DNA of 42,180 bases. Origin: Paraglomus brasilianum. Lineage: Eukaryota. Shown here in pieces: positions 3,291 through 42,180 of the stretch. The position numbers were made by a program, and so were the translations under genes. The stretch is taken from positions 1 through 42,180 of the forward strand of contig CAJVPI010000213.1 in assembly GCA_910592345.1 (NCBI GenBank). The letters are read 5' to 3'. Below the pieces are notes generated by a model. That model had not been told where the DNA came from. It saw only the letters and a program-made list of their open reading frames with translations, and ran no database searches. Within the stretch, counting starts at the first letter, position 1. Every line of letters starts with the position of its first letter.

Positions 3291-4256
3291 TACTATATTA
3301 ATATTAATATTAAAACAATGATCATAATAAGCCATTCATACCTTGTATTAATACCTTCTTTTTTTTTTTTAGAAATTTAGGATGAAAACTACATATCGAA
3401 CTGCCAGCATGCTATAATCATGCAAATTGAATTAATGTTAGAAACATATTGGTGAAGAAAGTGATCTGTATCATTATGTTTTCTTATGGGATAATATTTC
3501 ATCTGACGTGTTCACACGATGTATAATAACTTGATATTAGGAAAAACCAATTATTAAGCGTCTCACTCTCGGTGAATCGAGCATCAGGATCGCACATAAA
3601 ATATGAGCTGAAAAACTGGAACATTTATGTACATGTATTTATTGCTTAGCTGCTTTAACCATACAAGATCGATCCTAATGCCCGGTCGATCTACGGTCGC
3701 TCTTTTCCCTTTTCCCATTTTTATAGTCGCTTTAGGTTAAGATCGGATATTAGATCTTCTGGTAATCTGCGGACATCTTCAACTTGCTTGACGTGTTTGC
3801 CAACCCCACTCGCAGTACGATAACGAGAATTGAGCCAACCTTTAGAGCAAAGCTAAATATTTGATCAATATACAGTACGTATATTGACCTATAATATAAA
3901 TCCCACAATAAAGGCAGAATATGTCCCACTTGATCGGTAGCATTATTCGATATACTCTAACCGGAGGATCCATTCATTGCCCATATTTCTTAAACCTGAC
4001 GATGCAAAAATTATGAATATCAATGATGGTAACTCTAATATCACGTTTGTCAAGAGGTTCTTTTACCAGACCGAGGAGTGTGGATGGTAGTTTCATATTA
4101 TTAATGGCTAGACATGCTCATTTAGCAAGTCTGGTATGTAAAATATTTATCAAAACTAAGATTCGCATTTGTAGAACTCAAGGTTGAAATAGAAAAACTT
4201 ATATTGAACGTAAAGTACAACTAAAACAATCATTTATTATACATTCTAACATCTTA

Positions 4257-7002
4257 CTATTGGTCAATACCATATACGGTTGGTTGCCGGTGAGACAAAA
4301 ATGACAATCTTCTATGTACTTCTTCACTGCTTGGTCTGTTATCAGGCATTTCATCCCAGCATTCAGTATATAACGCAATGTAACCTTCGGGTGTCCCGAC
4401 AACAGGATCATGGCGGACACCCTGAAATCTGAGCAGCTCTATCTCGGTTTCACGACAACCTTTGAATGGCATTTCTCCACTTGATATTTCCCACAAAAGC
4501 ACGGCCAAGCTGAAAACATCAGATTTTGGTCCACGGGAGTAGGATATATTCTTCAAACTTAGTGGATCCATGTAGGCTGCTTTCCCCTTCCTATCGGAAG
4601 TGGGCATTATTTGAGTAATATCCCTTCCACAACCAAAATCAGCCAGTTTCGCAGTTTTATTAACCATGAGAATATTGGTGGAGCACTAGAAACGGTAACC
4701 ACGATTCAAGGTCACTAAATAATAGAAGTATCAACCGACAGAGACAGTTGGAACCATACGCAATAAATACTATACCAGATCTTTATGTACTATTTGCCGC
4801 CCATGTAGAAATTTCAATGCGTTGGTAATATCCAAGCCTAACTTATATTTGTCTTCCCATTCCAGCGACGCGTAGTGTGTCGCCAAATACGTGCGCAATG
4901 TTCCTTCAGCTGCATACTCAAGAAGCATACCATATTTACCGGCATTATCTGTCAGTATGAATTGATGCGATTATTAATGTGTTCTCAGATAGTAAAGGAA
5001 ACAATGAAACTGGGAATCAGAAATACCCTTGCTCAAACCATATAATCGAATAATGTTTGGATGATTGTTCACAACACTGTGAAGTCTGAGCTAGCATATT
5101 ATAAATGGGTCATTGTTATGTAACATTTCGTTAGGAGAACAAATCTGTAAAAGGTGACTTGTAACAAACCTCTTGAACGAATGCCTCATACAACTCCGAA
5201 TCGGTATCATCGTTTCTAGGTACCAAGACTTTCAACGCGACTATGAGTCCCGACTGTCTTATCTTTCCTTTGCATACCACACCAAATCCACCGTGACCTA
5301 TAATTACACGGTCCAAAATATCTGCTTCTTCATTATAGTGTGGTAGATACATCTGGCTGTTTTTCAAGTATTCCTTGGATGATGATATCATGGTGCTGTT
5401 ACTTTCTGAAATGCCGGGCGTTCTTTGGTTGCTTTCTGAATATGTCTCTGACAGTTTAGTCATTAGCACAGACATGCTAGGAAATTCGTGACGAGCAGCC
5501 AGACGTATAGCAATATCAAGTTTGCAGAGAGATTCTACAATGTATTGCAACAGCGTGGAATCATCTACAGTCACAGATAATACCTGAATGCGAACGTAGA
5601 TAAATCAAATTCAATATACTAATAATAATACAAAATAATCCTAATTAGTATCCTGAACTTACGATAGACCAACCTAAATCTTCATACCTGTCCTCCATCG
5701 TTTACAAAAAGTAATCCGTTACTGTCTTGAAGCGCACTAACATTAAATATTTCCGTCGTACTAATTCGGCCCGTATATACAAGAGCTTGGGACCCAACAT
5801 CAACAAGGTGGATGAATCCGAACTTGGTAACAAGAAAGAAGAATCCGTACTCCTTACTGAATACACAATCGATAAAACAGTCTCCTGGCAAGAAATTTAT
5901 TGGAATTTCATCACAGTATTTATCGGTACGGGATAATTGTGACGTTTCGATTGTGTTAAATATACGAAGCTGTTGATCGGTAAAATCATTCGTCAATATA
6001 ATGCGACTGTATATGTAGACGTTTGTTCATAATCTTATTGCTTAATTTCTCACTCACACTTCCGGTATTAGAACTGGTACTTGATGCAACTGCGAACAAC
6101 GGTTTGTTAACATTAATCCCGTTAACTTCTTCAGAAAATACGAAAAATGCAACTGCAGTTCCATCAAAGTCCCGACTAATTTTATGCCGCCTGTTCCACA
6201 ACTGTATCTTGCCAACGTTTTCGTGATCCTATTGAAAAAAAAGCGCTCAATAAATAAACTCGTCAAATATTATGGGCAAATTTTGTTATTAGTAATCATT
6301 ACCTCACCAATCTTAGTTCCAATAACAGCAGCCCACGCAAGATTTTCGCTAGCCACATAGTTGATGATCTGAGTGTATGCCAATGATTCATTTCTGTTAA
6401 ATTCCTTCTTGGGTTTTATATAGTCAGCCTTCCAATAGTATATTGACCACTTCGTTACGATTACTAAAGTGGTGTTGTTAAGCCACTTCCAATATTCCAG
6501 TGCGTCATCCAACGTATGATCTCCAGTTTTAGTTTTGGTAATGCAACTAAAGATTTGGATTACTTTGTTTGCTGGTGAATATGAAGATAGACAATATCGA
6601 TTTTGAATACAAGTATGCGACAATTAAATCGACTCAACAATATTCAATACATTTACATTGCAGAGCTATGAACTGTCCGTCGTCGCTCAGAATCACTCGC
6701 TGAGCACTAATAGCATGTCTCTTCACGTTGTCTGTGTCCTGAAGATCTATTATTATCGCCTTGGTTTTTCCTTGTTCTTTGTTGGATACGACGATAAAGC
6801 GGTCTGATGCAAGGTTACAGGTTTCAGAACGAATGTATTCGTCGTCTATAGCGTAATTAGATAACTGCAGAGCAGCATATGCTAATCATATAAACATACA
6901 ATTATACGATGAATTTTACGAAAGGTTGAAATGCTACATTTATCCAACCTCGAGTCTCTCTTGTAGAGTTATGGGTATCACTTCGTTTGTAGCTGTAGTC
7001 AT
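4257..7002 (-). CDS. Clathrin heavy-chain terminal-domain (beta-propeller + linker) / TKL protein kinase fusion, 687 aa, 9 exons
   Basis: Exons 7002-6949, 6864-6657, 6571-6303, 6228-6058, 5969-5688, 5583-5170, 5090-5027, 4948-4776, 4685-4257. All introns are GT-AG (74-104 nt); 2064 nt, no internal stop. The N-half parallels clathrin HC: PITLQERLE, ASDRFIVV, IIIDLQD, AISA, IALQ..VIQIF, YWKWL, TQIINY, GKIQLW, FLVTKFGFIHLVDV, RIS, NDGGQVLSVTVDD, IAIRLAAR. The C-half is a kinase: GHGGFGVV, VALK, HPNII, LLEYA, HKDLCSTN, DFG, YMDP, SDVFSLAVLLWEISSGEMPF, CWDEMPDNRP. Confidence 0.92.
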
Positions 7003-7596
7003 ATCGAAGTTTCAGGTAAAAAACGATAATCAAAGATTGCTTTATTTAGCCGTTCAGGGTTATTGTTACACCAATCAAAGTAAACAGGGGTAGTAGTAGG
7101 TGGTCGCGCATTCATAAATACTGTAAACAAATACTATGCATGTACAGAGAATGATAGTGAAATATACTGGAGTTGATCTACTTTCTGGGCTTAATTATGA
7201 TGTTAATGTCTATCCTGGAGCTTAACTATTAACGCCTTATATTTATAAGATGAGTCCTTGAACGCATATAATTTATAACATTCTCCAATTATGACATCAC
7301 ATGACGCGTAAAATCACCAAAAATTTTAGATAAAAAAACCCCCAGAATTTGTCTTTATATTGATTATCTCTCACAAATGCGACACTGTATTTGTTTCCAA
7401 AGAGAGCGCTCCTCTGCATCCAAACTGTACTATCCAGTACGACATGTAAGTAAGACCACTCGCAATTGGCAACGCTTACAACGACACTGACTCAGTAGTC
7501 GACACCCTCTCTTCAACCTCACGTCCGAATAGTACCTTCCTTCGTCTCCTCTAATCTCCTCTACTGTTAAAAAAGTCACATGAAACTTCGAACCGA

Positions 7597-8925
7597 ATGG
7601 CACGAAGAACCATCTCCCCACAACACTTTTATCAGAATAGAATTTTGGATCAGTATGCATCTCAGTCAGCAAAAACTATAACGCTTCGTCAGCTAGCGTT
7701 TTTCGGAAGGAACCTAAACGAAGATAAATTAATACAAAGTGGCAACTATGTGAGAAAAGAACTCCCCGTGAGGCTTGCTCACAGAATACGTGACTTTCAA
7801 AATCTTCCATTCATAGTTGGTACCAACTCTTACATTTCCACTGTTTATGAGTTATATTGGTCGGCATTTGATCGACTACGTAGTATTCCTGAAATAAAAA
7901 CTATCGAGGACAACCATATGTTTTGTGAGACATTGAAGGGCCTTCTACGCGAACATCTTGTTGCACTTCCGCAATTGGCAAGAGGAATGATGGAATGCTC
8001 TAATCACATATCGCAAGGGTTAATAGATAGGTTTATGTATACTATGCTACGTTCTCGCATATCTAGAAGAGTGTTGGCTGAGCAGCAGATTGCTTTGACC
8101 GCGAACTGGAACAAGTATGGACATAGTGGATTCTATTCCGATGGGCGTATTGGTGTTGTTAATACGAAATGTAATGCAAGGGACACAGTGGAGAGATGTG
8201 CGACCGTGACAAGAGATGCATACCGTACTTACTATGGAGTCGAACCTCCCGAAGTTGTGTTTGATGGCCGTGAGAATGTCGTGTTTACGTATATTCCAGA
8301 TCATATAGAGTATGTCCTGTATGAGCTGTTGAAGAATTCTATTAGGGGAGTCATTGAAACACATTCTTCAGAGGTTGTTAATAATGTGATGGAGGCCACG
8401 AAATCGGATGTAAAAGTCCCGGAGGCTACGCAGGATACCAACGAAACAGAAGAAATAGAAGCTAATCCTTCATCTGCCCAACCGTCTTCTCGTCCTCACT
8501 TTGCACATGAAAAGATCCCTCATTCGCGTCCACTTGCGCCCTCCTCTACTTCGGCATCCAAAACATCGCCCTATCCACATATAAGCGTGACAGTTTCGTC
8601 ATCCCCTACCGATATATATTTCCGTATCTCGGACCAAGGAGGTGGAATTCCTGAATCCATATATCCACATATCTGGTCTTTTCCTTCTTTGAAATTCAAC
8701 AAATTCACCAATCTCGACAAAGTATCTCAGATGGCTGCTACGTTGAGAGAAAGACAGGAGGAGATTATTCCACCGATGTTGAAATTAGGCATTGGTTTGC
8801 CTATGAGCAAAGTTTACTGCGAGTATTGGGGCGGAGGCTTGATAGTGTTTAGTATGGATGGGTATGGGACGGATGCCTATATTAAGATTACAAGATTGGG
8901 AAACAAGGAAGAAAATTTAGTGTAA
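7597..8925 (+). CDS. Mitochondrial alpha-ketoacid dehydrogenase kinase (PDK/BCKDK family, GHKL ATPase), 442 aa, single exon
   Basis: BCDHK N-domain motifs TLRQL, ELPVRLAHRIRDFQNLPF, SRISRRVLAEQ; N-box ELLKNS; G1 ISDQGGG; GIGLPMSKVYCEYWGG; GYGTD. An in-frame stop at 7552 supports the ATG at 7597. Confidence 0.93.
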   Translation: MARRTISPQHFYQNRILDQYASQSAKTITLRQLAFFGRNLNEDKLIQSGNYVRKELPVRLAHRIRDFQNLPFIVGTNSYISTVYELYWSAFDRLRSIPEIKTIEDNHMFCETLKGLLREHLVALPQLARGMMECSNHISQGLIDRFMYTMLRSRISRRVLAEQQIALTANWNKYGHSGFYSDGRIGVVNTKCNARDTVERCATVTRDAYRTYYGVEPPEVVFDGRENVVFTYIPDHIEYVLYELLKNSIRGVIETHSSEVVNNVMEATKSDVKVPEATQDTNETEEIEANPSSAQPSSRPHFAHEKIPHSRPLAPSSTSASKTSPYPHISVTVSSSPTDIYFRISDQGGGIPESIYPHIWSFPSLKFNKFTNLDKVSQMAATLRERQEEIIPPMLKLGIGLPMSKVYCEYWGGGLIVFSMDGYGTDAYIKITRLGNKEENLV

Positions 8926-11970: not shown

Positions 11971-13850
11971 ATGCAACCTTTTAATAAATACTATCCGCCA
12001 GATTGGGATCCGAGCCAGGCTAGTACAGTTCTCTTAATACTAGATCTATTAAAAAAGCTTGTATAGGTACTTATCTACGGCTGGCTGTAGGGCTCGGTGA
12101 ACAAATTTGTGGGGAAACATCCACTTGGCGACAGAGCCCGGAAGATAGATCAGGGCATTTTAATCGTCAGGTTTGTTTTATTTTACCCTATTGCTGTTCC
12201 CTTCTTGTCGTGTTTTTTCTGGTTGTTAACCTAAGTTGCGGGGCTTGGCGCTATGATGTCAACGTATCGTACTCAAGATTCGAATTACCATTTAACATCT
12301 GGTGTGAAGGTTGTGAAAACCATATTGGCAAAGGTAAATTGTTAATTGACGTATTTCTGGTCAATCAATTCCAGCAATTGCGCTCACATTTTACTGTCAC
12401 GTCTGTTCAGGGGTTCGCTATAATGCAGAGAAGAAGAAAGCTGGGAACTATTACAGTACGCCAATATGGAGTTTCCGTATGAAATGTCACTTGTGTGATA
12501 ATTGGTTTGAAATCCAAACGGATCCAAAGGTATTATAGATTGTAATTATTCTTGATTTCACTTTTATATGGGTATGCATCTAACATAAACCAACTTGTTT
12601 ATAGAATGCGGAATACGTAGTGGTGTCGGGAGCGCGACGGAAAGAAGAAGAGTGGGATCCAGAGGATACGGGGACAATAAAACTGAAAGGTGATTAGTAT
12701 TTTCTAGTTCGTGCAGCATTCGTCTGACAATCCGTAACTAAATTGTTCTGATCTGTATGCAGATGACGATGAGGCACGAAAACTTGCAGAAGATGCTTTT
12801 TATAAATTAGAACACGCAGTCAAGGACGAGCAGAAGCATGCTGCAGCCGTTCCTGCGCTGACACAGTTGCAAGTATGCGTTATGAGACAAAAACACTCGA
12901 GGAGATATATTCAATTGGAGAGATTGACTGAAATTTAATTTTATTGATGACAGCGTTTGAACGAGCGGCAGTGGGCCGACCCATATACCCTTTCACAGAA
13001 AATGCGCAAAATATTCAGAGCAAGTATTGGAAGCATCGGTTTGGGCTTACGCTGTTCGGTTGTATTGACAGGAATTGTCGAATTTATTAGAATGATAAGA
13101 AAGTGCGGGAAGTACAGAATCGGCAAGATGAGGAAATACTTGATCGAAATGGGTTATCGATAGCTTTGTTGCCTGAATCACATGATGACATCATAAAAGC
13201 AAAAACTACACAATTTTTAGGTGTTTTCCATTACCTCAATTTATTGGACCATTATTTGTTTGTTTGTGAGACCTCAGAATTAATACCACTCAACTCTTTT
13301 ATGATTCAGACCCTGTACTAGAACAAGCGCAAAAGCGAAAGCTGGAAGTAACAGCATCGTCAATATTCGAACCACGTTCTTCACGAAAAGAATCCAAGAA
13401 AACAAAAGTGTCGGCGCTGGCGGCTAAAGACAAGATTGCCCAGCTTTCCGCAATGGCCAAAGTTAATACAAAGTTGAAAATCGATCCGTTTTTGAGGAGT
13501 GACACTGTGGTCAGTAAACCAAATAACGTAGGAAGCGTGTTGGGTATAGTAAAAAGAAAGAATGCAATTAATCATGCCGAAGCTAGTGGCAGCAGCGAGT
13601 GGGAAAATATGGAAGAGGAAGTAGACGAACCGATCGATGAAGTCATGAAAAATATTTTGCACAGTCAACGGGAAAGGGCCGCAGACGGTAATTGTATATT
13701 ATTCGTTTTATTCGTATATGCAATACAACCGCTGATTGACTGTCTGATTATCGGTTCTCTTGAGCAGTGCGTATTCCTTCGATATCACTGGTGAGCACTG
13801 ACTACGATAATGACGACTCTGAAGAAAGTGAGGAGACAGAAGAGGGGTAA
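11971..13850 (+). CDS. YJU2B: YJU2B/CCDC130 (Saf4, CWC16 family) splicing factor, 384 aa, 10 exons
   Basis: Exons 11971-12018, 12091-12170, 12278-12333, 12411-12529, 12605-12689, 12763-12872, 12954-13019, 13091-13220, 13310-13687, 13768-13850. Motifs NKYYPPDWDP, HPLGDRARKIDQGILIVRFELPFNIWCEGC, GVRYNAEKKK.GNYYSTPIWSFRMKCHLC, EIQTDPKN.EY, WADPY. Introns 1 and 7 need GC donors. Confidence 0.93.
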
Positions 13851-14163
13851 TGAACGATAGAACTGGTTTATATTGGTAGATAAATTAATTTATGAGAAGC
13901 AATTGCGTACTGGCAAACTTTGAGATACTTGTCGCCTCTTAATTAATAGCAAGTCGAAATGAGGAAGAAACATTTCCCAGTTATTATTTCGAGATTCTTT
14001 ACTCAATCTTTTGTCAAGTGTCATTTGCTTACTCGTTCATAATAAGTAATATTAAGAGCTAGTTAATTATAGACGCCATTGGTTTATTATTTGTAAAGAG
14101 CGTAATATAATGTCGTTTAGAAGTCAATCTTAACAACAATTTAACGGCACGCTATTTGCATGT

Positions 14164-14681: not shown

Positions 14682-15878
14682 TTATTCTGAGTCAACCGAA
14701 ATTGGTCTTATAATACTAATACCCGTCTGAATTTTTCGGCGAAGAATAAATTATCACATCTATATGGGGCGGCACAACCGAAATGTGTGACAGGTTATGC
14801 CGATGATGTGGTACAACTGTCAATTGATCTGACTAACTCTGCCTCATCAACAAACCTCGTGTTTGCTTAAATAATAATAAGCATAATAATAATAATAATA
14901 TCTCCTTTGTTTAGTCGAAGCAAATATTTTTCTCTCAATCAAAACTTCTCTTTCCACTTTCACCATACGAAACTCTTTTAACGTTCATATAATAATAAGT
15001 ACCTTTAAAATTAAAGTTTATAACAGTTACACAGCTTGTGATTATTGAACAATATGGAAGTCGAGAATACAGAAAATACTCGACAGGTTTGTCAATTATG
15101 CACCTGTTCGGGTGAACTTTATTTTGAGAAAATTTTTAAGTTTTATTAAAGTTTATCGATAATGTTTACCGTTATTTAGTTTATGATAATTTTTACATAG
15201 TTCATCAATAATATAAGTTATCTGCTATTAAAGAGGTTTTTTTTGTTTATGCAAATTTTTTAATGTTTTATTATACGTGCTATTCCCTGGGCCTCGACAG
15301 CAATAGTGTTGTAAGCTAGCTTGAGGAGAGTTGACATGGTGGAGGTAAAAGGGGAGAAATTGTGTGGGGAATAGGGGAATATGGAAATTGGAGTTGTACG
15401 ATCTTTTTCTAGCATGTTCCAGGACATTCAGTCATTCGCGTAATGAGTAACTGTCGAGACTTACTAAAAAATAGTAGCTTATTCGTAATAAACCAAGATA
15501 ACTTTGTTTCCTATTAACGTTAAAGCTTTATTTCCATTTCATTATTCTGTTCGTAATTTCTGGAAATAACGATAATGATGTCACCAGAGTTTTAGTTTTC
15601 TTTTTTTCATTGGCTCAGCCAAAATGCCTTGCATATTGTCACCCTTCAGCCAATAGGCATGTATTTATCTGAAACGCCATCAAACTTTTTTTTTTCCTCA
15701 ACTTTATTGCTATTTCTTAAACATTAACGCGTCAAATCACATGTAAGTACCATTCTGAGATTTACAAGTGGCAGAACCCCATTCGTGGAGGAAACCAGTC
15801 ACAGTATTGTTTTGGTATAGAAGGGACGCCTTTCATCACTAACTTGACAATTTGTTTTTTCACCGCTAGATCACAATA

Positions 15879-18251
15879 ATGTCTATGTCTACCAATGTCC
15901 ATTACCAAGTCAATGATGGCCGTGCAGTATCTAGAGTCGAACTTTCGAAAGGAAATGGCCTTATCGACTTACGCGATTCAATCAAGGAAAAAGAATTACT
16001 TAACGTGGCTAGCAGTACCCTGAAGCTTTTCGTAACGCCTGGAAATACGGGTCGTTTTGAACTTGATGGACCTCTGTTTCAAAAGTACAATAAGAAATTT
16101 GAAGACTTAATACAGAATGTTCCCATTAACAAAGATAATCCAATTATAGTGGAGCTTCCTGGTGTGTATTTTGTTCTCTAAAAAATAAACGCTTTCATAC
16201 TCCACACCCTCCTTGTTAGTATAGCTTTAAATAATGCCTTTATAGTAATGTCGCCCACTGCTTTTTTCGTCGCATTTGCCAATTACCGCACCGTTTATTA
16301 CTTATGTCTTAGATTATTATGTTTCGTTTCACAATAATGTTCTTTTTTCTAGGATGCAAATTCATCATATTCTGTCTACATTTTCTATTTATTTTATTTC
16401 ACAGCTCATCGATTTTCTACTAAACTTATACTTTCCACTTGCCCCTCTTTATGGTTCTGACTTTCTACCTGCCTTTCCATCTATGATTGTGACTGGTTTG
16501 CCGTGAAGCCCCAGAGCCTGGTATGTTATTGGCTGGCAGAGTAATTTTGACAAAGTTAGAATTTTTATTTCATCTTCTTTATATCTTTGATATTTCTTGT
16601 AGAGGGTGAACCTTCAACCAAAAGGCAAAAAAGAGCTCTTTCTGAAATTCTCAGTGAATTGGGTTTTGAACATGTATATACTCGAAATCGCATTGATTTG
16701 AATAAGCTGAGCTGTGAAGAGCTTGTGCGTTTCATCACGAAACTTGGTCAACCACTGATGGATCAGGACTTGTTTGGTGTGGTGTTTGATACTGCTTCTT
16801 CAATCAAGGACAAAAAGGTTCCAGTGCCCAAAAGCAATGGCATCATCACGTCAAATGAACCTTTATCTCTACCAGTAGTTTACATGCATCAACTCTTTGT
16901 AAGGCCTGATTATGTAAATCTCTACAACATCATCGTCAAGAAAGGTGGTCGCATACACCTCACAGGCACATCCGGCATTGGAAAATCCTGCTTTCTTGTG
17001 TACTTTGTTATCCGCCTGTTGAGTGAGAGCAGAGATGAAGCCCCAAATGTCATCGTCTTCCAAACCAAAGATCCTCTGCAGAAATGGTACTGCTTCATGG
17101 GGACAAGTGCTTTGCGTTGTGGAAGTTACCAGGATTTTTATTCTGTTTTGACCTTTAAAAATGCATGGTATTTAGCTGATGACATCGTGGATCCCCGTGT
17201 CCTCAATGTAAATACTCTCGTCACTCTTTCACTGAACAGTCTCTATGAGTATGGCAATAAACAGTTCCAAGAGTATGCCAAAAACTGTATGACATATTAT
17301 ATGCCTCCCTGGAGTATTAATGAACTGACATCCTGCCAGCAACAGATCTTCCCAAATTTACCCCCTGCTTTGATGAGCAAACTTTTCCTTAAGGCCGGAG
17401 GTATCCCAAGATACATACTGCAGCAGGGGCAAATTCAATGGGATGATCCTGCCAACAACCAAAACTATGATCTTGTTGAAAAAAAGGCTTTGCGACGTTT
17501 CTTTCTGGCTTTTACAGAACTTGGTAATACGGTCAAGCTTTTGGAATGCTTTCGTGATGGAGGTCATTACATGAAATACAGTAGCCGTTTGATCCATACT
17601 TGGAATAGTGATGATTCGTACACGGACTGTTACTTTAAGTTTGCTTCACGTTATGTCTTCGACAAAATCCAGGATTGCTTCACAGAAGAAACTGCACGAT
17701 ATATGTTACGGCAATTAGCTGATCATACTTTCTATGGTACCAACTACAGAGGGAAAATGTTCGAGCTATATGTTCTCTATCTATGGCGATCAGGTGGCAG
17801 TCGATACACAACTAAAAAACTTGGGGTCGCGAATAGTTCATCGGGAGAGCTCTGTACACAGAGAAACCCCAGCATTCACCGAGTTCAAAATGTAGATACC
17901 TTCAAAATACCTGACAGATCGAAGAATGAGCTCTTTATACCGCTCCACTGCAATTTCCCAACTGCTGATTTTATTGTGTCACCCGACAAAATCTTCCAGA
18001 TTACAATTACTACAGATCATGGTGTTAACATGAATGGATTGGTGAAAATCATGAACGAAATGCGTAGAGCAAATCCCGGGACAGATAAAATCAAAATTTT
18101 TTTCGTCGTCCCAGAGGATATTTACAATAACTTTAAATTTCAAAACTACATGACAGCTAAAAATCAGAAGGCTCAACACCTGGCTTATGAAACAAAATAC
18201 GTTGAACAATGGGCATTGAAAATTGACATTGCATCTGCGCAACGTCTATAG
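15879..18251 (+). CDS. Crinkler (CRN)/RHS-like protein: ubiquitin-like header + NLS-like motif + P-loop NTPase + restriction-endonuclease-fold domain (about 643-647 aa)
   Basis: Exon 15879-16161 has a CRN-type header (IDLRDSIKEK..LKLF..NPIIVELP). Probable 12-nt micro-exon 16509-16520. Exon 16603-18251 has KRQKR, LFVR..Y, Walker A GTSGIGKS, WYLADD, YMPPWS.NEL, GGIPRY, GKMFELY, NFPTADF, QIT...H and FVVP. Likely 5'UTR intron 15743-15869. Confidence 0.85.
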
Positions 18252-30558: not shown

Positions 30559-33500
30559 CTAGCGTACAAATGGGATAGAAGGAAATTGGAACCACGCAAG
30601 AGCAAGCATTGCTGTGAATGAAAAATGTGAAAAATATTAGAGTTTAAAATTCACCAGAAGCATCCATCTAGCAGGTAATTCATCGCACACATTCTCAATA
30701 ACTTACCAAACAGCATAGGCACCCAGAACAGAAACAGCATCCGGTCTTTCTTCAACCTTATAATTTTTTCTCTGTACCTTCCGAGAGCAGCCTCATCCAC
30801 ACGTGGCATTCCATATACATGTCCAACTAACCTCTTGGATCTCTTTATAGTAGCTGGCGTAGCATTCGAAGTACCCTCTCCCGGCTGGTGTGGATACATA
30901 GGAACGTGTTGCTGTCCTTCCGAGTTATACCATAATGGCCACGTATACCCAAACACATTACCGCCAAACATGTTACCGCCAAACATGTTACCTCCAAACA
31001 TGTTACCGCCAAACATATTACCGCCAAACATGTTACCTCCAAACATGTTACCCCCTTCTTTCTTATCTCCATCACTTCCATCCGATTGTTTCCTAGTAAA
31101 TTTGAAATAATGTTCCCAAGCGTTATTAACAGATGTTACTTGCTCAATAGATGGATCCGAGGATGGTCCATTTGTTCTATCCTCGCGACTGAAATTAGCA
31201 AATGGCGACGACGCTATCATCGCAGGGAAAGCTGCCATCACTGCCGGGAATGCAGGCATCTCAAACATGTGCAAAGACGGTATGCTCGGCATAGACGGCC
31301 TGGGAATCGACATTTTTGAAGTAAACGTCATAGTCGAGAACTTTGGTGATGTGAATTTGGGAGATGAGAAATTTTGTAGATTGGGCATCTGCAAATTAGG
31401 CATTTTGATGTTTGGCAGCGGAATATTCAATTGTGGCGGTTTGCTGATATTTGGCATATGCATGTGAGCAAAAGTTTTTTGAAGCCAGATGGTCGATGCT
31501 GACGCAAGGTCATTGGCAAAGTCGGTCAGCGGTTGCTTGGACTTTTTGTCGTCTACTACTGGTTCGGCATCGACAATTTCATCCGTGCCAAGAATATTCT
31601 CTGCCGATAGACTGTTTTCTGTGGGAGTTTTGGGATCAACCCATGTAATTGGAACGCTTGGAATATCTTTGCCTTTCATATCACTATCAAAAGCTGCCAT
31701 CTTCTCAGTTTCTCGCATAATATCCGCTTTATGTATAGCCATTTCTATACTATTTCTCTCTGATATATCTCTCTCATTCGAAACATCCGAGTCACTCATA
31801 CCGCTCTGTTCATCTTCACCCTCGCTCTCTTCAATCTCTATCTCACTGTCAAAATCAGGCCAACTGTCGTCTGACTCGACAAAAGAAGCATCTTCTTCAG
31901 ACGATGACGGAGAAAGAGAAACACCAGAATCGTGTTGTTGTTCAAAGAGGAGGTTAACTATTTCCTCATAACCACGAGAAGCAGCTAGGTCCAATGCACG
32001 TTGGTCGTACACGTTACGGATATCATCACGTGCCCCAGCTGATAGTAATTACGAAATGTGAGAAGACAGTGACAGGAACAGCACAATACAAGTATTAAGG
32101 GAGACAAACCTGCTACAAGTAATCTAACAATATCGGTTCTTCCAGTCCAGGAGGCATAGTGAAGCGCTGAAATTGAAAATTTAGTTGTCAACATGACAAA
32201 CTTTACATTTCCAATTCTTTTCCCCTTTTCTCTCTCTATCATTAACAAACGTACCAGTAAATCCATAATTATCCTGTGTTTCCCAATTAATCTCTCGTTC
32301 AATCAACACATTACACAAATCTGCGAATCCTAGCATAGCCGCCAAGTGCAACATTGTATGTTTCGTACTATTTTGTAGTGAAATGCAATCCTCAAATTCG
32401 GTCTCGACGTCCAACAAACCAATCGTTTTAATAATGTGTTCCTCTAGATTATTGGACATTGAAGCATTTCGAACGATTGCTGATATTGTGGAGTTCATGG
32501 AGTGAGTGGTGCCTGATGGAGATGCAGATGGCGAATGGGATGAGTTGGTGGAAGTGTCACCAATGATGCGCATGGCAATGTTGCGTGCATCGTCGAGCTT
32601 CCCGGTCATTTTCATTCCGACTACTTGTAGGGCTAGTTCCATCAGGGCTCTATCAGAATCTACAAGTTTGTTAAAGGTTTTCATTGCCAAAAAGTATATG
32701 TTAGAAAAAAATTCTGCCCCCACCCCCTCTTCCAATACAGAGTTTTCATACCATCATTATATGTGAACACCACAACTTCTGAATTCTGACTGTCCATCAG
32801 ATTTATCGGGAATTCTTTGAAAGATACGATAACTGGACCCGGCGCCGGAGATGGAGGTAAAAGACAGACTAAAGTATTAGAAGACCAGAATTGTGTCGGG
32901 ATGGCAGGTGTGTCACCAAATACGCATGTCAAGCCATCTGCGAAAAAATGGGGAAGGTTAGGACATCAGAAACAAAACAAATGGGAATTTATGAGAAGAA
33001 GAAAAAGATTGATATTAGTGTCTAGCATTAAACTTTTGAAATTTGAATTGGCAGCTTGAGCTGATTTATTATTGTATGTATCTTTACATATTATGTGGTC
33101 GGTTTCCAATTTGTTATCAAATCGGTTCAAACCCTCCGTAATCTAAATACTCACTATAAAAATTATTTCCAAGAACGGTGACCTCTATGCCACCATAAAT
33201 TGGTCCCTCGCTCGGAATCAATCTACTGATCCTGGAAACGGGTCCGAACCCCACGTTCGGATTTTGGAACATGGTGTTTCCGTAGACGCTCTGTGGCATT
33301 ATGCCTGGATTATTCGGTATGTGGTGTTGGAGATTGAGTGAAAGTTGAGTTGGAGAGGGAGAGAGTGGAAACGCGGTTGGTGTTAAAGGAGAGGATATGG
33401 ATTGATGTAGAGTGAGCGGATAGAGGTTGTTTATGCCTTGAGACTGTAATGTGGCTGGAATGAGATGGAAAGTGAGATGAGAAGATTAACTGAACAGAAA

Positions 33501-35366
33501 TTCAGGGCTTTATCTAACCACTCACCATTACGATCATATTTGGCCGGAATGTGATAAGGTGCCGACGCAGGCCGGGGGGAGCTGGGAGAAATAGGCGACA
33601 AAGGCGTCGATGGGGAAGTAGAATAGCCTCCCAAAGTCTGGATTTGCCTTTCATTCTCTACTTTGAGTCCAATTTGTCCATCTTCTTCCAATTCATGTCC
33701 TCCTTCATCATTACCCTGCATAATCCTGCCTATTTGAGGTTCTTGCTTAATAATTTGTCTCTTTTGCTTCCCGGAAGTTCCCACCCCGAAACACCTTGGT
33801 TGTGCAAAGGTATTCGTAGCCGACGCTGCAGAACCATTAGAAGTAATATTAGAAGGTAAACTCGAAATCGATATCGGCATTGTGTTTGATCTCTCTTTTG
33901 ATCTATCCACAGTTCTTTCGACCATTCTATCTGCTAATTTCGAGTTAGAGCCCCGACGATCGTGTTCAGCCCGTGATCGCCGTCGCCCGACGCCGTTAGC
34001 CTGTTTTGTTTTTGATGATTTGTGATCGTCGGTTATCATTATTGCTGGTGAGACTCCGCGGGCTATTACTTGGCCGGAGCAGTCTTTCATTACAAAAATA
34101 ATGCAAAATCCAACTTTTTCGTTGTGGTGGCGGCAGTAGCAGGTAATGCGTGTAGGAAGAATAGTATCGCCACTGCTAAAATCTACGATTTCGCTACAGT
34201 TGAAAAGAAGAATCTTGCGTTGTTCGAGTGCTAGGGATTTCTCATCGTCAAGGTCCATAGATTTCGATGCTTCCTCCTGCTGCGCTTGTGCTTGTGGGTT
34301 GGACTTGAGTTTGTGTTCTTTTTTGCGTTGCGATCGTTTTCTCTAGTGATATTGGATGGAAAGGTTTACAGGTAAGCCAAAAATTGAAAAAAGAAAAGGT
34401 ATATCCAACATAAATTTGTTAATCATAATGTATGATGCATGTCCAATTTGATTAGCGTAATTAAATCTCAATTCCTATCGGAACTGAGATTTACAAAAGC
34501 TTCACTATAATTCAATTTCGTTTTACCCTTGATTTCCCACCTAGTCCCAATGTATTTTTTTTTTTTAAAACATGTTTCTTTACCTCTCTTTGCACACATC
34601 CCAGACAAGTGGTAACTTGCTTAAGCGTCTCACTAGCACAAACAACAGTCGCCTCCAAATTCAACACACCCTTTTCAGCAATGTTCACACTCTGATCCTG
34701 ACCATTTCTAGAATTTTTTGTTTTTAACTTTTCTTTTGCCACCATATACTCTGGTAATCTTAGATGCGACCACAGTGGCACTTTTTCGCCCTTGTCAGTA
34801 ACCAACTGAAGACATAATTTTATTTGGGTTTCTACGCGAGATTTGGCTCCAGTTTGTGGCACTCCAAGGACTTGTATCTGAAGGTTTTTCATTGAATGTG
34901 ATAAGGCTGAAGGATGGACATTCTTTTGATATGGGAGAGATTGATGTAACGGAAGGTCTGTAAGTTGTTGTTGTTTTTTAATTTGCTGCTGTTGCTGCTG
35001 TTGCTGCTGCTGTTTTTGCGGCTGCTGCTGCTGCTGCTGCTGCTGTTGTTGTTGTTGTTGTTGCTGCTGCTGCTGCTGTTGCAGTGGTTGCTGACTAGCA
35101 GTAGCAGCCGCGAACGCAAGACTTTGCTGCAACTGACCAACAGTATCAATCAATCCCTGACTATGCTCGGTGTGTACTTCATGGTTCGGCGTTCTCTGAG
35201 GAGTAAGAAAGAACAGCGGGTTGTCATTATCAAGGACCTCTAGTTTTGGATCGAGAAACATTGTTTCTGGATTGTCATGGTAATAGTAAGAGGCAGAAAG
35301 AGCATAGTCTTCAGAATGAGGTGAGTATGGCGAAGAACACTGAGTTTCTTCTTCGGGTGAGGGCAT
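30559..35366 (-). CDS. MGA2: Spt23/Mga2-family ER-anchored transcription factor (IPT/TIG, ankyrin repeats, C-terminal TM), about 1310 aa, 8 exons
   Basis: Exons 35366-34584, 34342-33526, 33454-33155, 32937-32752, 32659-32255, 32166-32110, 32038-30707, 30611-30559. Motifs KSRVETQIKL, C.GCVQRE.KR, LPTRITCYCRHHNEK.GF, IMITDDHK; IPT LIPSEGP..GGIEVTVLG; LMELALQVVG.KMTG; ankyrins HTMLHLAA and GFTALHYA; TM DRMLFLFWVPMLF. Confidence 0.95.
30951..31055 (-). repeat. Coding 15-bp minisatellite, (GGNMF)6-GGNVF, in Mga2
   Basis: Seven units with synonymous variation, in frame in exon 7. Confidence 0.95.
34984..35081 (-). repeat. CAG/CAA poly-Gln tract in the Mga2 N-terminus
   Basis: Read directly; it explains the antisense poly-Leu and poly-Ser/Asn ORFs. 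Confidence 0.95.
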
Positions 35367-36520
35367 ATTATTGAAAATAGTGCGAGTTGTGTAGAACGAG
35401 TCTCAGCACTATATTGAGTGACAGTATTATATTAGCAGGTATATTGTTGTTATATATGGAGCGGGGGGAGGGAGGAGAGGGAGGAGGATAGTTCTGTTGT
35501 CTATTCACTTAAGGTTGTTGTTTGTTGTTGCCTGTTCTATTGTCTCGTCTCTTGTTTACTTTCTAGAATCCTGTGTCGTACAAGGTGGTTCGATACTTTT
35601 CTAGCTGGCTTTGAGGATAGCAGCATCAACTATTACTACTTTTTCAACTCAACCGCAACAATGTAACTTAATATCGTAGTAATATTTATATCTTGAAAGA
35701 TATATCTTACTGTTTTTTGGTCAAAGAGTTGTTGAAGGGTCTCCCGAGTCACACTGCCGTCTGTGTGCCCGTTAATGTCCAGAAATAGAGGAGTGGGTAC
35801 GCCGATATACGGAGGTACCGGCAAGTTATTATAGAGTGAGTAGAATAAATAATACAATGTATGACATATTGTATAATCCTACTTATGCAATTGTCTGCGC
35901 ATGTTGTGTCTCTCTCGTTGTGTTATGCCTGACTAGCGCATTTATGATGGAAGCTTCCTTTGCGCTAGTATTATTTGTCAACGCACAAATGCGCGTGGTA
36001 GTCATATGATAGAATTGGATGCGATCGGATCAATATGGCAAATGGTGACATATCGCATACTAATCGGAAGTTGTGGAAAACGAAAATATATTTAGTAAAC
36101 AAACTCCGATATTTTATTCCACTATTAACTATCACACAGTCGTTTTATAAATTATTTCATGACCCGACAAGAATGCGACGTTGTTTTAATTTATATTCTC
36201 CGTTCCTTTCATCATTACAATCGTTTTATTAACACCCGATTATGTTCAATCACATTGTTACATGGTTTCACAATGTTTAGATAGTTAGTCCTTATTAATG
36301 GCGCATTATTTGTACAGTCACGGAAACGTCACATGAGCTACAATTTATGAATTTGTTGACTTGCTTTGAAACAAACATCTCGAATTGGCGTTTCTAATGT
36401 TTGGGAAGATCTAACGGGAATTTTGGAGTTACGTCATTGATCCGCTGCCCATTTTTGGAACAATCATGCACACAACATTATCAATCTTGAAAATAATAGG
36501 AATATTGTATCGGCATGGTC

Positions 36521-38725: not shown

Positions 38726-39893
38726 CAGGGGGGTGACAAAAGTATTGCACGATCGATTTAATAAAATTGTTAATATGTAACTGCCCATGTGATTCTTATA
38801 TCATATTTGCCTACATATTATCTAAATGGATTGTTGTTTGTTGTTTTGATTTAATCTGTTATGGATTGTAAAAATCTCTATCATTTTCAATTTTTCGCGT
38901 GATGGGTCTTGCTGCACAGGAAAGCATTATTACAGCCAAAAATTAGGCCACAATAATACAGAAATTGCAAAAGCTGTAGTAGTAGAATGTCATCGAACAA
39001 CAGTTGCGGCTTATGAATCAGGAGAACCTTCCAAAAAACGATCAGGTCGACCACGCTTGATCGGCAGTCAAAAAAGGCAAAGATTGAAGGCTATGGTTCT
39101 CAAAAATAGGAAACAAGGCGAAAAAATCTAGCAGAATTACTAATATGTTTTCAGTACGAACAATTTGTCGAGCACTTCATAAGAAAAATTTACATTCCTG
39201 TATTCCAATTCCAAACGATTTGGGCAATAGAAAGAAGACATTGTAAATTGGACTTTGGAAAGAATAATCTGGACAGATGAGTCTACGTTTTCACAGTTTC
39301 AAAAATCTGGTTGTGGAGAGAGCCAGACGAGAAATTTCATAAAGATTGCATTGCATCAGCAGTAAAACATTCTCCGCAAAGAATGTTTTGGGCTGCTTTC
39401 CTTTTAAAATTAGGTCCCATTGTTCCACTTACAGGTTCAGTAACTGGAAATGTATACAAAGAAATACTTTCTACTTATGCAATTCCCACACGTAAAACGT
39501 TTTCCCGGCAAACCAAAATTATTTTTATTTTTCAGGAAGACAATGCACCGGTTCACACATCGAATGTTGCACGAGAGTTTCTTTATTACCAAAATATGGG
39601 GGTGCTTCCATGGCCTATTGAGAACTTGTGGGCTACAGTTGAGGTAGAAATTCGAAACCATAATCCTCAGCTATCAAGCATTGGTGAACTTGAAAGAGAT
39701 TTGGGGGCGATTACGCAAAAAGTATATCGTGACTTGGTGCGATCAATACTAAATAGAATTCAGGCTGTGATTGCTGCCAATGGAGGACATACTAAATATT
39801 GATGTATTAATTCCGGATATAAATAAAATTGACTGTGATCTTAATAAAAATTTTTGTTATTGCTAAAAGCAATACTTTTGTTACACCCCCCCG
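38726..39893 (+). mobile_element. Decayed Tc1/mariner DNA transposon (about 1.17 kb) with TIRs and TA duplication
   Basis: TA-cagggggggtgacaaaagtattgc ... gcaatacttttgttacacccccccg-TA. Transposase remnants RSGRPRL, IIWTDESTFSQF, WREPDEKFH.DC, FQEDNAPVH, PWP-IENLW (SPDLNP motif deleted), AVIAANGGHTKY. Stops and frameshifts in the 5' half. Confidence 0.93.
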
Positions 39894-41610: not shown

Positions 41611-42180
41611 TTATTCAAAGAGCGTTTGAGTCACTAAATCATAAGAAATGCACGGTGTTAATATTGTAAATTGACTTTATTTGTACCAACGTGCAACCAT
41701 ACCTGCAGCTGAATTCATATCATAGCTATTTGTCGGTTTAGGCAAATCTCCAGTAGGTAAAAGCCTACTAGAATATTTACTCTCCTTCTCGAGACGTGAT
41801 AAGGGTTTTACATCATTATGATAGATGATATTCCACGTGTTGTCAGAATTGTCCATCTTTTTAATAAGCTTGCCAATATCATCCAAAAGTGTCTCTGCAT
41901 CTGGACGCTTATCGGGATCAGCATCATAACACCGCTCGGCAAGTTTCTTGTATTCCTCTGGTGCGGAATCAGGCATCAATGGTCGTAGTCCGCTCATAAT
42001 ATCGCATACTAAATCTCTATCGAACTGCCTATCTCTAAAGGGTGGTTCACCAGTAGCAATCAAATACATAATGATACCAAAAGAATACACATCTGATTTC
42101 TTCGTAAATTTGCAGGTATGGAAGACTTCCGGTGCAATAAAGGGTAAAACGCCTCGAATGGTTGAATTTGACTCGCGTGA
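41611..42180 (-). CDS. 3' part of a TKL protein kinase (continues beyond the window)
   Basis: RGVLPFIAPEVF..KFTKKSDVYSFGIIMYLIATGEPPF..GLRP.MPDSAPEEY..C.DADPDKRP...KYSSRLLP. Intron 41634-41702, then a last exon VTQTLFE*. Confidence 0.9.

Follow-up and report, generated by a model that had tools for sequence, protein, structure and literature searches.

A Paraglomus brasilianum gene joins a clathrin terminal-domain propeller to a tyrosine-kinase-like kinase domain

Gene structure, related copies and transcripts

A 42,180-nt stretch of the Paraglomus brasilianum genome (contig CAJVPI010000213.1 of assembly GCA_910592345.1, forward strand; here called the window) carries on its minus strand a gene whose product begins as a clathrin terminal domain and continues, through linker helices and a Ser-rich spacer, into a tyrosine-kinase-like (TKL) kinase domain (Table 1). 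Splice sites were taken from a six-frame view and checked, and the exons were then joined by script. The nine exons form one open frame of 687 aa (2064 nt) whose only stop codon is terminal, and all eight introns are of the GT-AG type and 74–104 nt long. In the spliced frame the clathrin motifs VLSVTVDD and DIAIRLAAR start at aa 329 and 351, and the kinase motifs GHGGFG, VALK, HKDLCSTN and DFG at aa 424, 443, 542 and 561. The original prediction for this locus, made from the sequence of the window, had described nine GT-AG exons, an unbroken 687-aa frame and these motifs, and scripted joining bore out all three. It had also placed the clathrin part in the first ~365 aa, followed by the Ser-rich spacer; that order stands, and the extents shift, with clathrin homology reaching about residue 380 and the spacer occupying about aa 382–415. 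The region of aa 366–415 contains 11 Ser.

The deposited protein of the window (P0002, 427 aa) is identical to the spliced frame over its first 389 aa. At residue 389 the deposited model leaves exon 6 for an exon at 3840–3724 and skips the kinase, which requires a 1.5-kb intron, compared with 74–104 nt for the other introns. The deposited model of the P. occultum protein (P0001) is partial and lacks exons 7 and 8.

We found exon 6, which holds the junction, in P. occultum (78% identical) and in a metagenome contig, L001 (77% identical; one of 142 candidate stretches). The junction exon is thus open and 77–78% identical across three independent assemblies. P0001 has Pfam matches to both clathrin and kinase families, and its propeller is identical to that of P. 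brasilianum at 272 of 328 positions. In L001, exons 6–9 are open, the three kinase introns lie at identical places and in identical phases, and the stop is the same. The search for the architecture proposed with the original prediction returned a related copy in P. occultum and another in L001. A simple pairwise count between L001 and the window over the 358 codons of exons 6–9, with the propeller outside the comparison, gave dN 0.091 and dS 0.155 (dN/dS 0.59, bootstrap 0.40–0.92). The ratio was 0.52 for the kinase (confidence interval [CI] 0.32–0.97) and 1.2 for aa 366–415 (CI 0.4–5.0), and in no region was it significantly above 1. The introns diverge by 0.09–0.16. Within the kinase, variation is greatest in the activation segment (60% identity between the copies). 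Selection on these exons has been purifying and modest.

Transcript-type contigs were available from four runs (X1–X4) of one study, their RNA type being a tool's guess; such contigs can demonstrate presence, never absence. They skip six of the eight introns (2, 3, 4, 6, 7 and 8) precisely at the predicted sites. A contig of run X2 covers 5170–5525 (aa 348–466, from the clathrin linker to the kinase alphaC helix) with no differences from the window, and a contig of run X3 covers 5237–5488; both cross the junction and run unbroken past the donor site of the deposited model. At least 1830 of the 2064 coding bases are covered (20 of the 26 pieces listed, X1–X4). Among these pieces, exon 1, 5688–5808 and 5526–5583 are without cover; intron 5 is thus left unbridged, and splicing of intron 1 is seen in no contig. 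Of the transcript evidence sought across exons 5–7, the contigs supply the junction and intron 6.

We conclude that the fusion is real and is a single gene. A misassembly was rejected, since the junction is open in three assemblies and the X2 and X3 contigs cross it, and so was the deposited kinase-less model, whose donor site is crossed by contigs and whose 1.5-kb intron is out of line. The view that a junction inside one exon is neither a splicing nor an assembly artefact has thus held.

Table 1. Positions in the window of the fusion gene, its parts and other features
Feature	Position	Strand	Basis
Whole fusion gene, 687 aa (clathrin terminal domain, linker helices, spacer, TKL kinase)	4257..7002	-	Frame, related copies, spliced contigs
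Exons 1-5, clathrin terminal-domain beta-propeller, aa 1-328	5688..7002	-	PDB sequence matches, predicted fold
Exon 1	7002-6949	-	
Exon 2	6864-6657	-	
Exon 3	6571-6303	-	
Exon 4	6228-6058	-	
Exon 5	5969-5688	-	
Core of clathrin-box groove: Q93, F95, K100, K102 (clathrin Q89, F91, K96, K98), kept in window and P. occultum	6528..6557	-	Alignment; site residues from available text of PMC5182127 and PMC11543927
Exon 6 (linker helices, spacer, kinase N-lobe)	5583-5170	-	
Exon 6, 5' part: clathrin linker helices, aa 329-381, end of clathrin homology	5425..5583	-	Alignment to residue 379; predicted helices
Ser-rich spacer with fusion point, about aa 382-415	5323..5424	-	Sequence; read through by contigs of runs X2 (record 10) and X3 (record 14)
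Exon 6, 3' part: kinase N-lobe with G-loop aa 424-429, beta3 Lys446, alphaC Glu466	5170..5322	-	Motifs
Exon 7, kinase	5027..5090	-	Frame; both flanking introns spliced in run X4 (record 18)
Exon 8, kinase hinge to catalytic His-Lys-Asp (aa 542-544)	4776..4948	-	PF07714, E 2.4e-9; spliced contigs
Exon 9, kinase catalytic Asn, DFG, activation segment, C-lobe, stop	4257..4685	-	PF07714, E 4.2e-18; kinase relatives
Intron-free BCKD/PDH-kinase-like gene	7555-8925	+	
Short N-terminal exon and 563-aa open frame with P-loop motif	15870-18251	+	No Pfam match
SPT23/MGA2-like gene (DNA-binding, IPT, ankyrin) with poly-Gln tract and GGNMF repeat	30651-35402	-	
Open frame	39281-39802	+	No Pfam match
C-lobe fragment of another TKL kinase at the window end	41893-42099	-	36% identical to fusion kinase
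Dispersed diverged repeats (68-86%)	266-684 vs 3501-4026; 848-1212 vs 13731-14099		

The clathrin half and the kinase half

The N-terminal half is a clathrin terminal-domain beta-propeller. A phmmer search of the PDB with P0002 gave 18 matches, all of them clathrin heavy chains, the best being 1bpo (E 2.8e-54; query 7–379 against 3–375). Exon 5 alone matched clathrin chains in 18 of 19 cases (best E 1.6e-7). The propeller is identical to pig clathrin at 95 of 295 positions (32%). Pfam profiles were less sensitive: no clathrin family was reported for any of the five clathrin-side exons taken singly, and PF01394 scored 27.9 bits in P0001, above its cut-off of 21.3, and 18.2 bits in P0002, below it. 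No match to Clathrin-link or Clathrin_H_link was obtained by Pfam in either protein; alignment and helices reach about residue 380 and the remaining linker is absent. Of the profiles that the original prediction expected, PK_Tyr_Ser-Thr was found, the clathrin propeller only weakly, and Clathrin-link not at all.

An AlphaFold model of the clathrin half (mean pLDDT 88.8) shows a strand-only propeller to residue 334 and three linker helices at 336–346, 350–359 and 365–381. Its top Foldseek matches were clathrin (E 9e-37), with other propellers at 1e-13. Clathrin relatives were among the 82 rows of the alignment behind this model, and the model leans toward clathrin as a result. An atlas's own model of P0001 tests the fold more independently; it matched a clathrin cluster with a TM score of 0.83 (338 residues). 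No leg repeats and no trimerisation domain follow: the frame passes into the kinase and ends at 687 aa, and P0001 has no leg match. Because these parts are absent, we do not class the fusion protein as a clathrin heavy chain. The structural and sequence matches thus agree with the prediction of a clathrin N-terminal half, the frame with its loss of leg and trimerisation domains, and the 32% identity, together with the tree described below, with its strong divergence.

We compared the four ligand sites of the propeller in both Paraglomus copies, using site residues given in the available text of PMC5182127 and PMC11543927, with the yeast numbers of the latter mapped by us to mammalian ones. At the clathrin box, R63, L82, Q89, F91, K96 and K98 are kept (6 of 10 positions), and R64 is changed to His, I93 to Cys and T87 to Val. 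The other sites retain less: two of six positions of the W box (Q152 and I154, with F27 replaced by Ser), three of eight of the arrestin box (Q192 and K245 lost) and two of seven of the Royle box. Among background columns, 75 of 264 are kept. Against this background the retention of the clathrin box gave P=0.037. When family conservation, drawn from 32 full-length clathrins, was allowed for, six retained positions compared with 3.64 expected (P=0.094, not significant; four sites tested). Other family-conserved polar positions of the propeller are kept at only 9 of 27 places. Retention of the clathrin box is therefore a lean and no proof. The fusion protein itself has no match to the clathrin-box motif (L-hydrophobic-x-hydrophobic-[DE]) in its 687 aa.

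A second propeller form was seen in run X2 (record 11). At window positions 6216–6227, the start of exon 4, it reads VRAI in place of HENV and resembles P. occultum there, and elsewhere it is ~99% like the window. This rim loop beside the W box differs among all copies seen. The second form may be an allele, a paralogue or another strain.

The C-terminal half is, by its sequence, a TKL kinase domain nearest to kinases of Glomeromycota. Exons 8 and 9 match PF07714 with 37.3 and 66 bits (cut-off 23.1). The G-loop, Lys446, alphaC Glu466, Asp544, Asn549 and DFG, which the original prediction listed as kept, are all present in the window and in L001. For exon 9 only two relatives were returned, from Rhizophagus irregularis (P0171, 41% identical) and Glomus cerebriforme (P0172, 39%); over the whole kinase domain identity is 39% and 36%. 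This fits the predicted derivation from the Glomeromycota TKL expansion. An eight-row kinase tree supports the nearest-neighbour reading only. The word-based homologue searches gave two proteins each and missed known clathrins, and are weak evidence of absence. According to the available text of PMC8647823, kinases of this kind belong to high-copy families. Searched by sequence against the PDB, the C-lobe scored best with MLKL and MAP3K-type TKL domains; MLKL is a weak match, on a par with numerous other kinases (E about 1e-13 to 1e-11).

The catalytic loop reads HKDLCSTN in the fusion protein and H[HR]DLHSxN in the two relatives. Ser/Thr kinases usually carry Lys at Asp+2, and a basic residue at Asp+2 or Asp+4 is canonical. 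Here these positions are Cys and Thr, without a basic residue, and the relatives have His at Asp+2, so that the Lys is missing throughout this family. This lowers confidence in strong activity and leaves the family assignment unaffected; kinase activity is plausible from the motifs. The original prediction called the kinase non-RD. The loop is indeed His-Lys-Asp, and the argument built on it is weak, Arg being replaced by another basic residue.

Several further kinase sequences came to light. P0171 and P0172 each carry kinases in tandem, separated by repeated helical segments; in both proteins the second kinase is without canonical motifs, and the P0172 kinase carries Sel1 repeats alongside. 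Two low-depth contigs aligning at window positions 4252–4509 (X1 record 1 and X2 record 7) are 88% and 94% like the C-lobe of the fusion and are probably from close paralogous kinases.

The neighbouring BCKD/PDH-kinase-like, Saf4/Yju2 and SPT23/MGA2 genes suggest no functional link to the fusion. The first lies head to head with the fusion gene, the starts being about 550–600 nt apart. One pair of dispersed repeats lies directly downstream of the fusion gene. The gene with the P-loop motif resembles those of the Crinkler type, and the open frame at 39281–39802 resembles a Tc1/mariner transposase remnant (Table 1).

Distribution and competing explanations

Searched in full with HMMER, P0001 returned 831 matches at E<=0.001. 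The best 150 all matched through the propeller, with P0002 first, and among the other 149 two carried a kinase. One is a predicted protein of the glaucophyte Gloeochaete wittrockiana (P0129; propeller, linker, EF hands and TKL) and the other a predicted protein of the sponge Oscarella pearsei (P0013; propeller, part of the leg and kinase); each is a single transcript-derived record. Both kinases match PF07714. They are 25% and 30% identical to the Paraglomus kinase, below the Glomeromycota kinases, and breakpoints and middle domains differ, so the two fusions are probably of separate origin. Of the 33 matches with at least 100 unexplained residues, 10 have full clathrin size; we scanned the other 23, and seven had a non-clathrin Pfam domain above cut-off: the two kinases, MSP, SAM, VWA, Kelch and SH3. 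Most such propeller fusions rest on one gene or transcript model each, and chimeras may be among them.

Clathrin terminal domains joined to other domains were seen in P0026, P0055, P0107, P0125, P0010, P0056, P0011, P0012 and P0049. The partners were MSP in Heterodera (two copies), VWA in Nonionella, Kelch in Closterium and SH3 in Glandiceps, with SAM on one contig. Dermamoeba has a second propeller below cut-off, and Pristionchus has tails matching no named domain.

An 82-aa metagenomic fragment (P0117) matches exon 3 and ends near the same splice point. It is 51–54% identical to the Paraglomus copies and 40% identical to pig clathrin, a hint that it probably represents a more distant relative of the fusion gene. 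In a terminal-domain tree of 30 rows, made by a quick method, the Paraglomus pair stands on a stem of 2.08 changes per site without a resolved sister; the tree is without a named fungal clathrin and shows neither the donor nor the independence of the other fusions.

The explanation we prefer, and to which we give an even chance, is an adaptor-docking kinase. The gene may have arisen when a partial duplicate of the fungus's own clathrin gene was joined to a gene of the expanded kinase family, whose members are many and mobile. The propeller would bind the clathrin-box peptides of trafficking adaptors and carry the likely active kinase to coated-pit membranes. Being leg-less, the protein would stay outside the lattice and would compete with clathrin for adaptors, and the kinase, concentrated by docking, would phosphorylate adaptors or nearby signalling proteins. 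As described in the available text of PMC7480105, a free terminal domain goes to membranes but stays outside coats; it inhibits endocytosis and has AP2 and SNX9 as binding partners. This behaviour and the kept anchors of the clathrin box lend support to targeting; since the clathrin box is kept, docking on adaptor tails and delivery of the kinase would be the most likely function. Several observations weigh on the other side. R64 and I93 are lost from the box, and its retention loses significance when family conservation is considered. The stem of 2.08 changes per site is large for a module that still reads conserved host motifs, and dN/dS of 0.59 is high for a housekeeping trafficking regulator. 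The Cys at Asp+2 departs both from the Lys of Ser/Thr kinases and from the His of the donor family. One contig keeps intron 8, which leads to a stop right after the catalytic Asp-Leu, and another extends into intron 1. Beyond Paraglomus-like sequences, the fusion gene was not found by word-based searches or among the best 150 of the 831 HMMER matches.

Some of the same observations would suit a propeller repurposed for an unrelated ligand, or as a scaffold or autoinhibitory lid, with a kinase that may be weak or a pseudokinase and a clathrin link that is only historical. We regard this as distinctly unlikely. The changed key residues of the W, arrestin and Royle boxes, the 32% identity and the outcome of the clathrin-box test point toward it, as do, for a weak kinase, the missing catalytic-loop Lys and the variable activation segment. 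It has to be set against the two surface Lys and the anchor Gln of the clathrin box, kept in both copies when other family-conserved polar positions mostly are not, and against the intact core catalytic residues of both complete kinase copies. Very improbable, in our judgement, is the absence of any working fusion, whether through an assembly error, a split into two genes or the decay of a duplication by-product, with the deposited 427-aa model being right. The early exit of that model from exon 6, the incomplete P. occultum model and the contigs with retained introns could be read in this way, but the conserved open junction exon, the intron places, phases and stop shared with L001, dN/dS below 1, the contigs crossing the deposited donor and the outsized intron of the deposited model all contradict it.

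An integrated-decoy sensor is a rather unlikely but possible alternative. Here the propeller would bait clathrin-binding proteins of endobacteria, viruses or mycoparasites and the kinase would start a defence or cell-death signal; the docking groove is shared with the adaptor-docking reading and the ligand differs. The long stem and the relatively high dN/dS would fit a decoy, but dN/dS is below 1 overall and no region of exons 6–9 significantly exceeds 1. Variation is likewise suggestive, with four codons replaced at the rim loop beside the W box in the second propeller form and with 13 of 19 and 9 of 11 changed codons altering the amino acid in the two diverged C-lobe contigs; these variant contigs, however, have low depth (2.7–6.3) and are possibly alleles, paralogues, other strains or errors. 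Viral peptides bind the clathrin terminal domain (available text of PMC5182127), and non-RD kinases are linked to immunity (available text of PMC8463890), but the change from His-Arg-Asp to His-Lys-Asp is conservative. The resemblance of the C-lobe to MLKL and MAP3K-type TKL domains is offset by the weakness of the MLKL match. Propellers are joined to other signalling domains in 7 of the 23 proteins scanned. The Paraglomus gene itself is flanked by ordinary genes, with no visible cluster of copies in the window. None of the points for a decoy is specific.

Relation to known systems and meaning

The fusion protein is homologous to the terminal domain and linker of clathrin heavy chain (PDB 1bpo, 5m5r and yeast 9ex5) over residues 7–379 and shares its predicted fold and clathrin-box anchors. 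It differs in the low identity, the absent leg and trimerisation domain, the changed W-box F27 and arrestin-box Q192 and K245, and the appended kinase. With P0171 and P0172 it shares 36–41% identity, the HxDLxSxN loop and C-lobe motifs; set apart from them are the N-terminal propeller as fusion partner, the change of His to Cys at Asp+2 and the His-Lys-Asp triad. P0129 and P0013 likewise are predicted chains containing both a clathrin terminal domain and a PF07714 kinase; their breakpoints and middle domains are different.

Plant kinase-fusion resistance proteins and integrated decoys join a copy of a host hub domain to a kinase. The Paraglomus protein is also a hub-domain copy with a kinase, and we found no clathrin example of such decoys in the literature. 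AAK1-type kinases carry a clathrin-box motif to bind clathrin; the fusion inverts this logic by carrying the receptor groove. In the literature available to us, the nearest described chimera is the oncogenic CLTC-ALK fusion, which also joins an N-terminal part of clathrin to a kinase domain. It is a somatic tumour rearrangement in which clathrin extends to exon 31 and includes the leg (available text of PMC5742812), whereas the Paraglomus gene is germline, conserved between species, stops after the first linker helices and carries a fungal TKL domain. The engineered free terminal domain TD/TDD is leg-less like the fusion, is recruited to membranes, binds AP2 and does not enter the lattice; unlike the fusion it is artificial, of unmodified mammalian sequence and without a kinase (available text of PMC7480105).

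We found no paper on a natural clathrin-propeller kinase, although the P. occultum architecture could be listed in supplementary domain tables of genome papers on Paraglomus or in subscription papers. A word search for "clathrin" in PMC5909441 and PMC8778642 gave no occurrences. The original prediction knew of no described protein with this architecture; that agrees with the literature, but predicted clathrin-propeller kinases do exist in a glaucophyte and a sponge. The design is apparently undescribed: a domain-shuffled Glomeromycota TKL kinase whose input domain has no precedent.

So far the clathrin terminal domain is known solely from the coat, and a natural, conserved and expressed kinase fronted by its propeller would represent a new means of regulating or monitoring endocytosis. 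Domain surveys would miss this protein because the deposited gene model hides the kinase. We consider, tentatively and with more doubt than belief, that eukaryotes repeatedly reuse the clathrin terminal domain as a signalling input, with a kinase in Paraglomus, the glaucophyte and the sponge and with SAM, SH3, MSP, VWA or Kelch elsewhere, and that the Paraglomus protein converts clathrin docking, by a host adaptor or an intruder, into phosphorylation as a first fungal clathrin-decoy receptor. Unannotated fusions of a similar kind in other eukaryotes suggest that the theme recurs, as yet unstudied. The kinase expansion of arbuscular mycorrhizal fungi is huge and functionally dark; one of its members gains a concrete, testable input in the form of peptide binding through a soluble domain of 380 residues.

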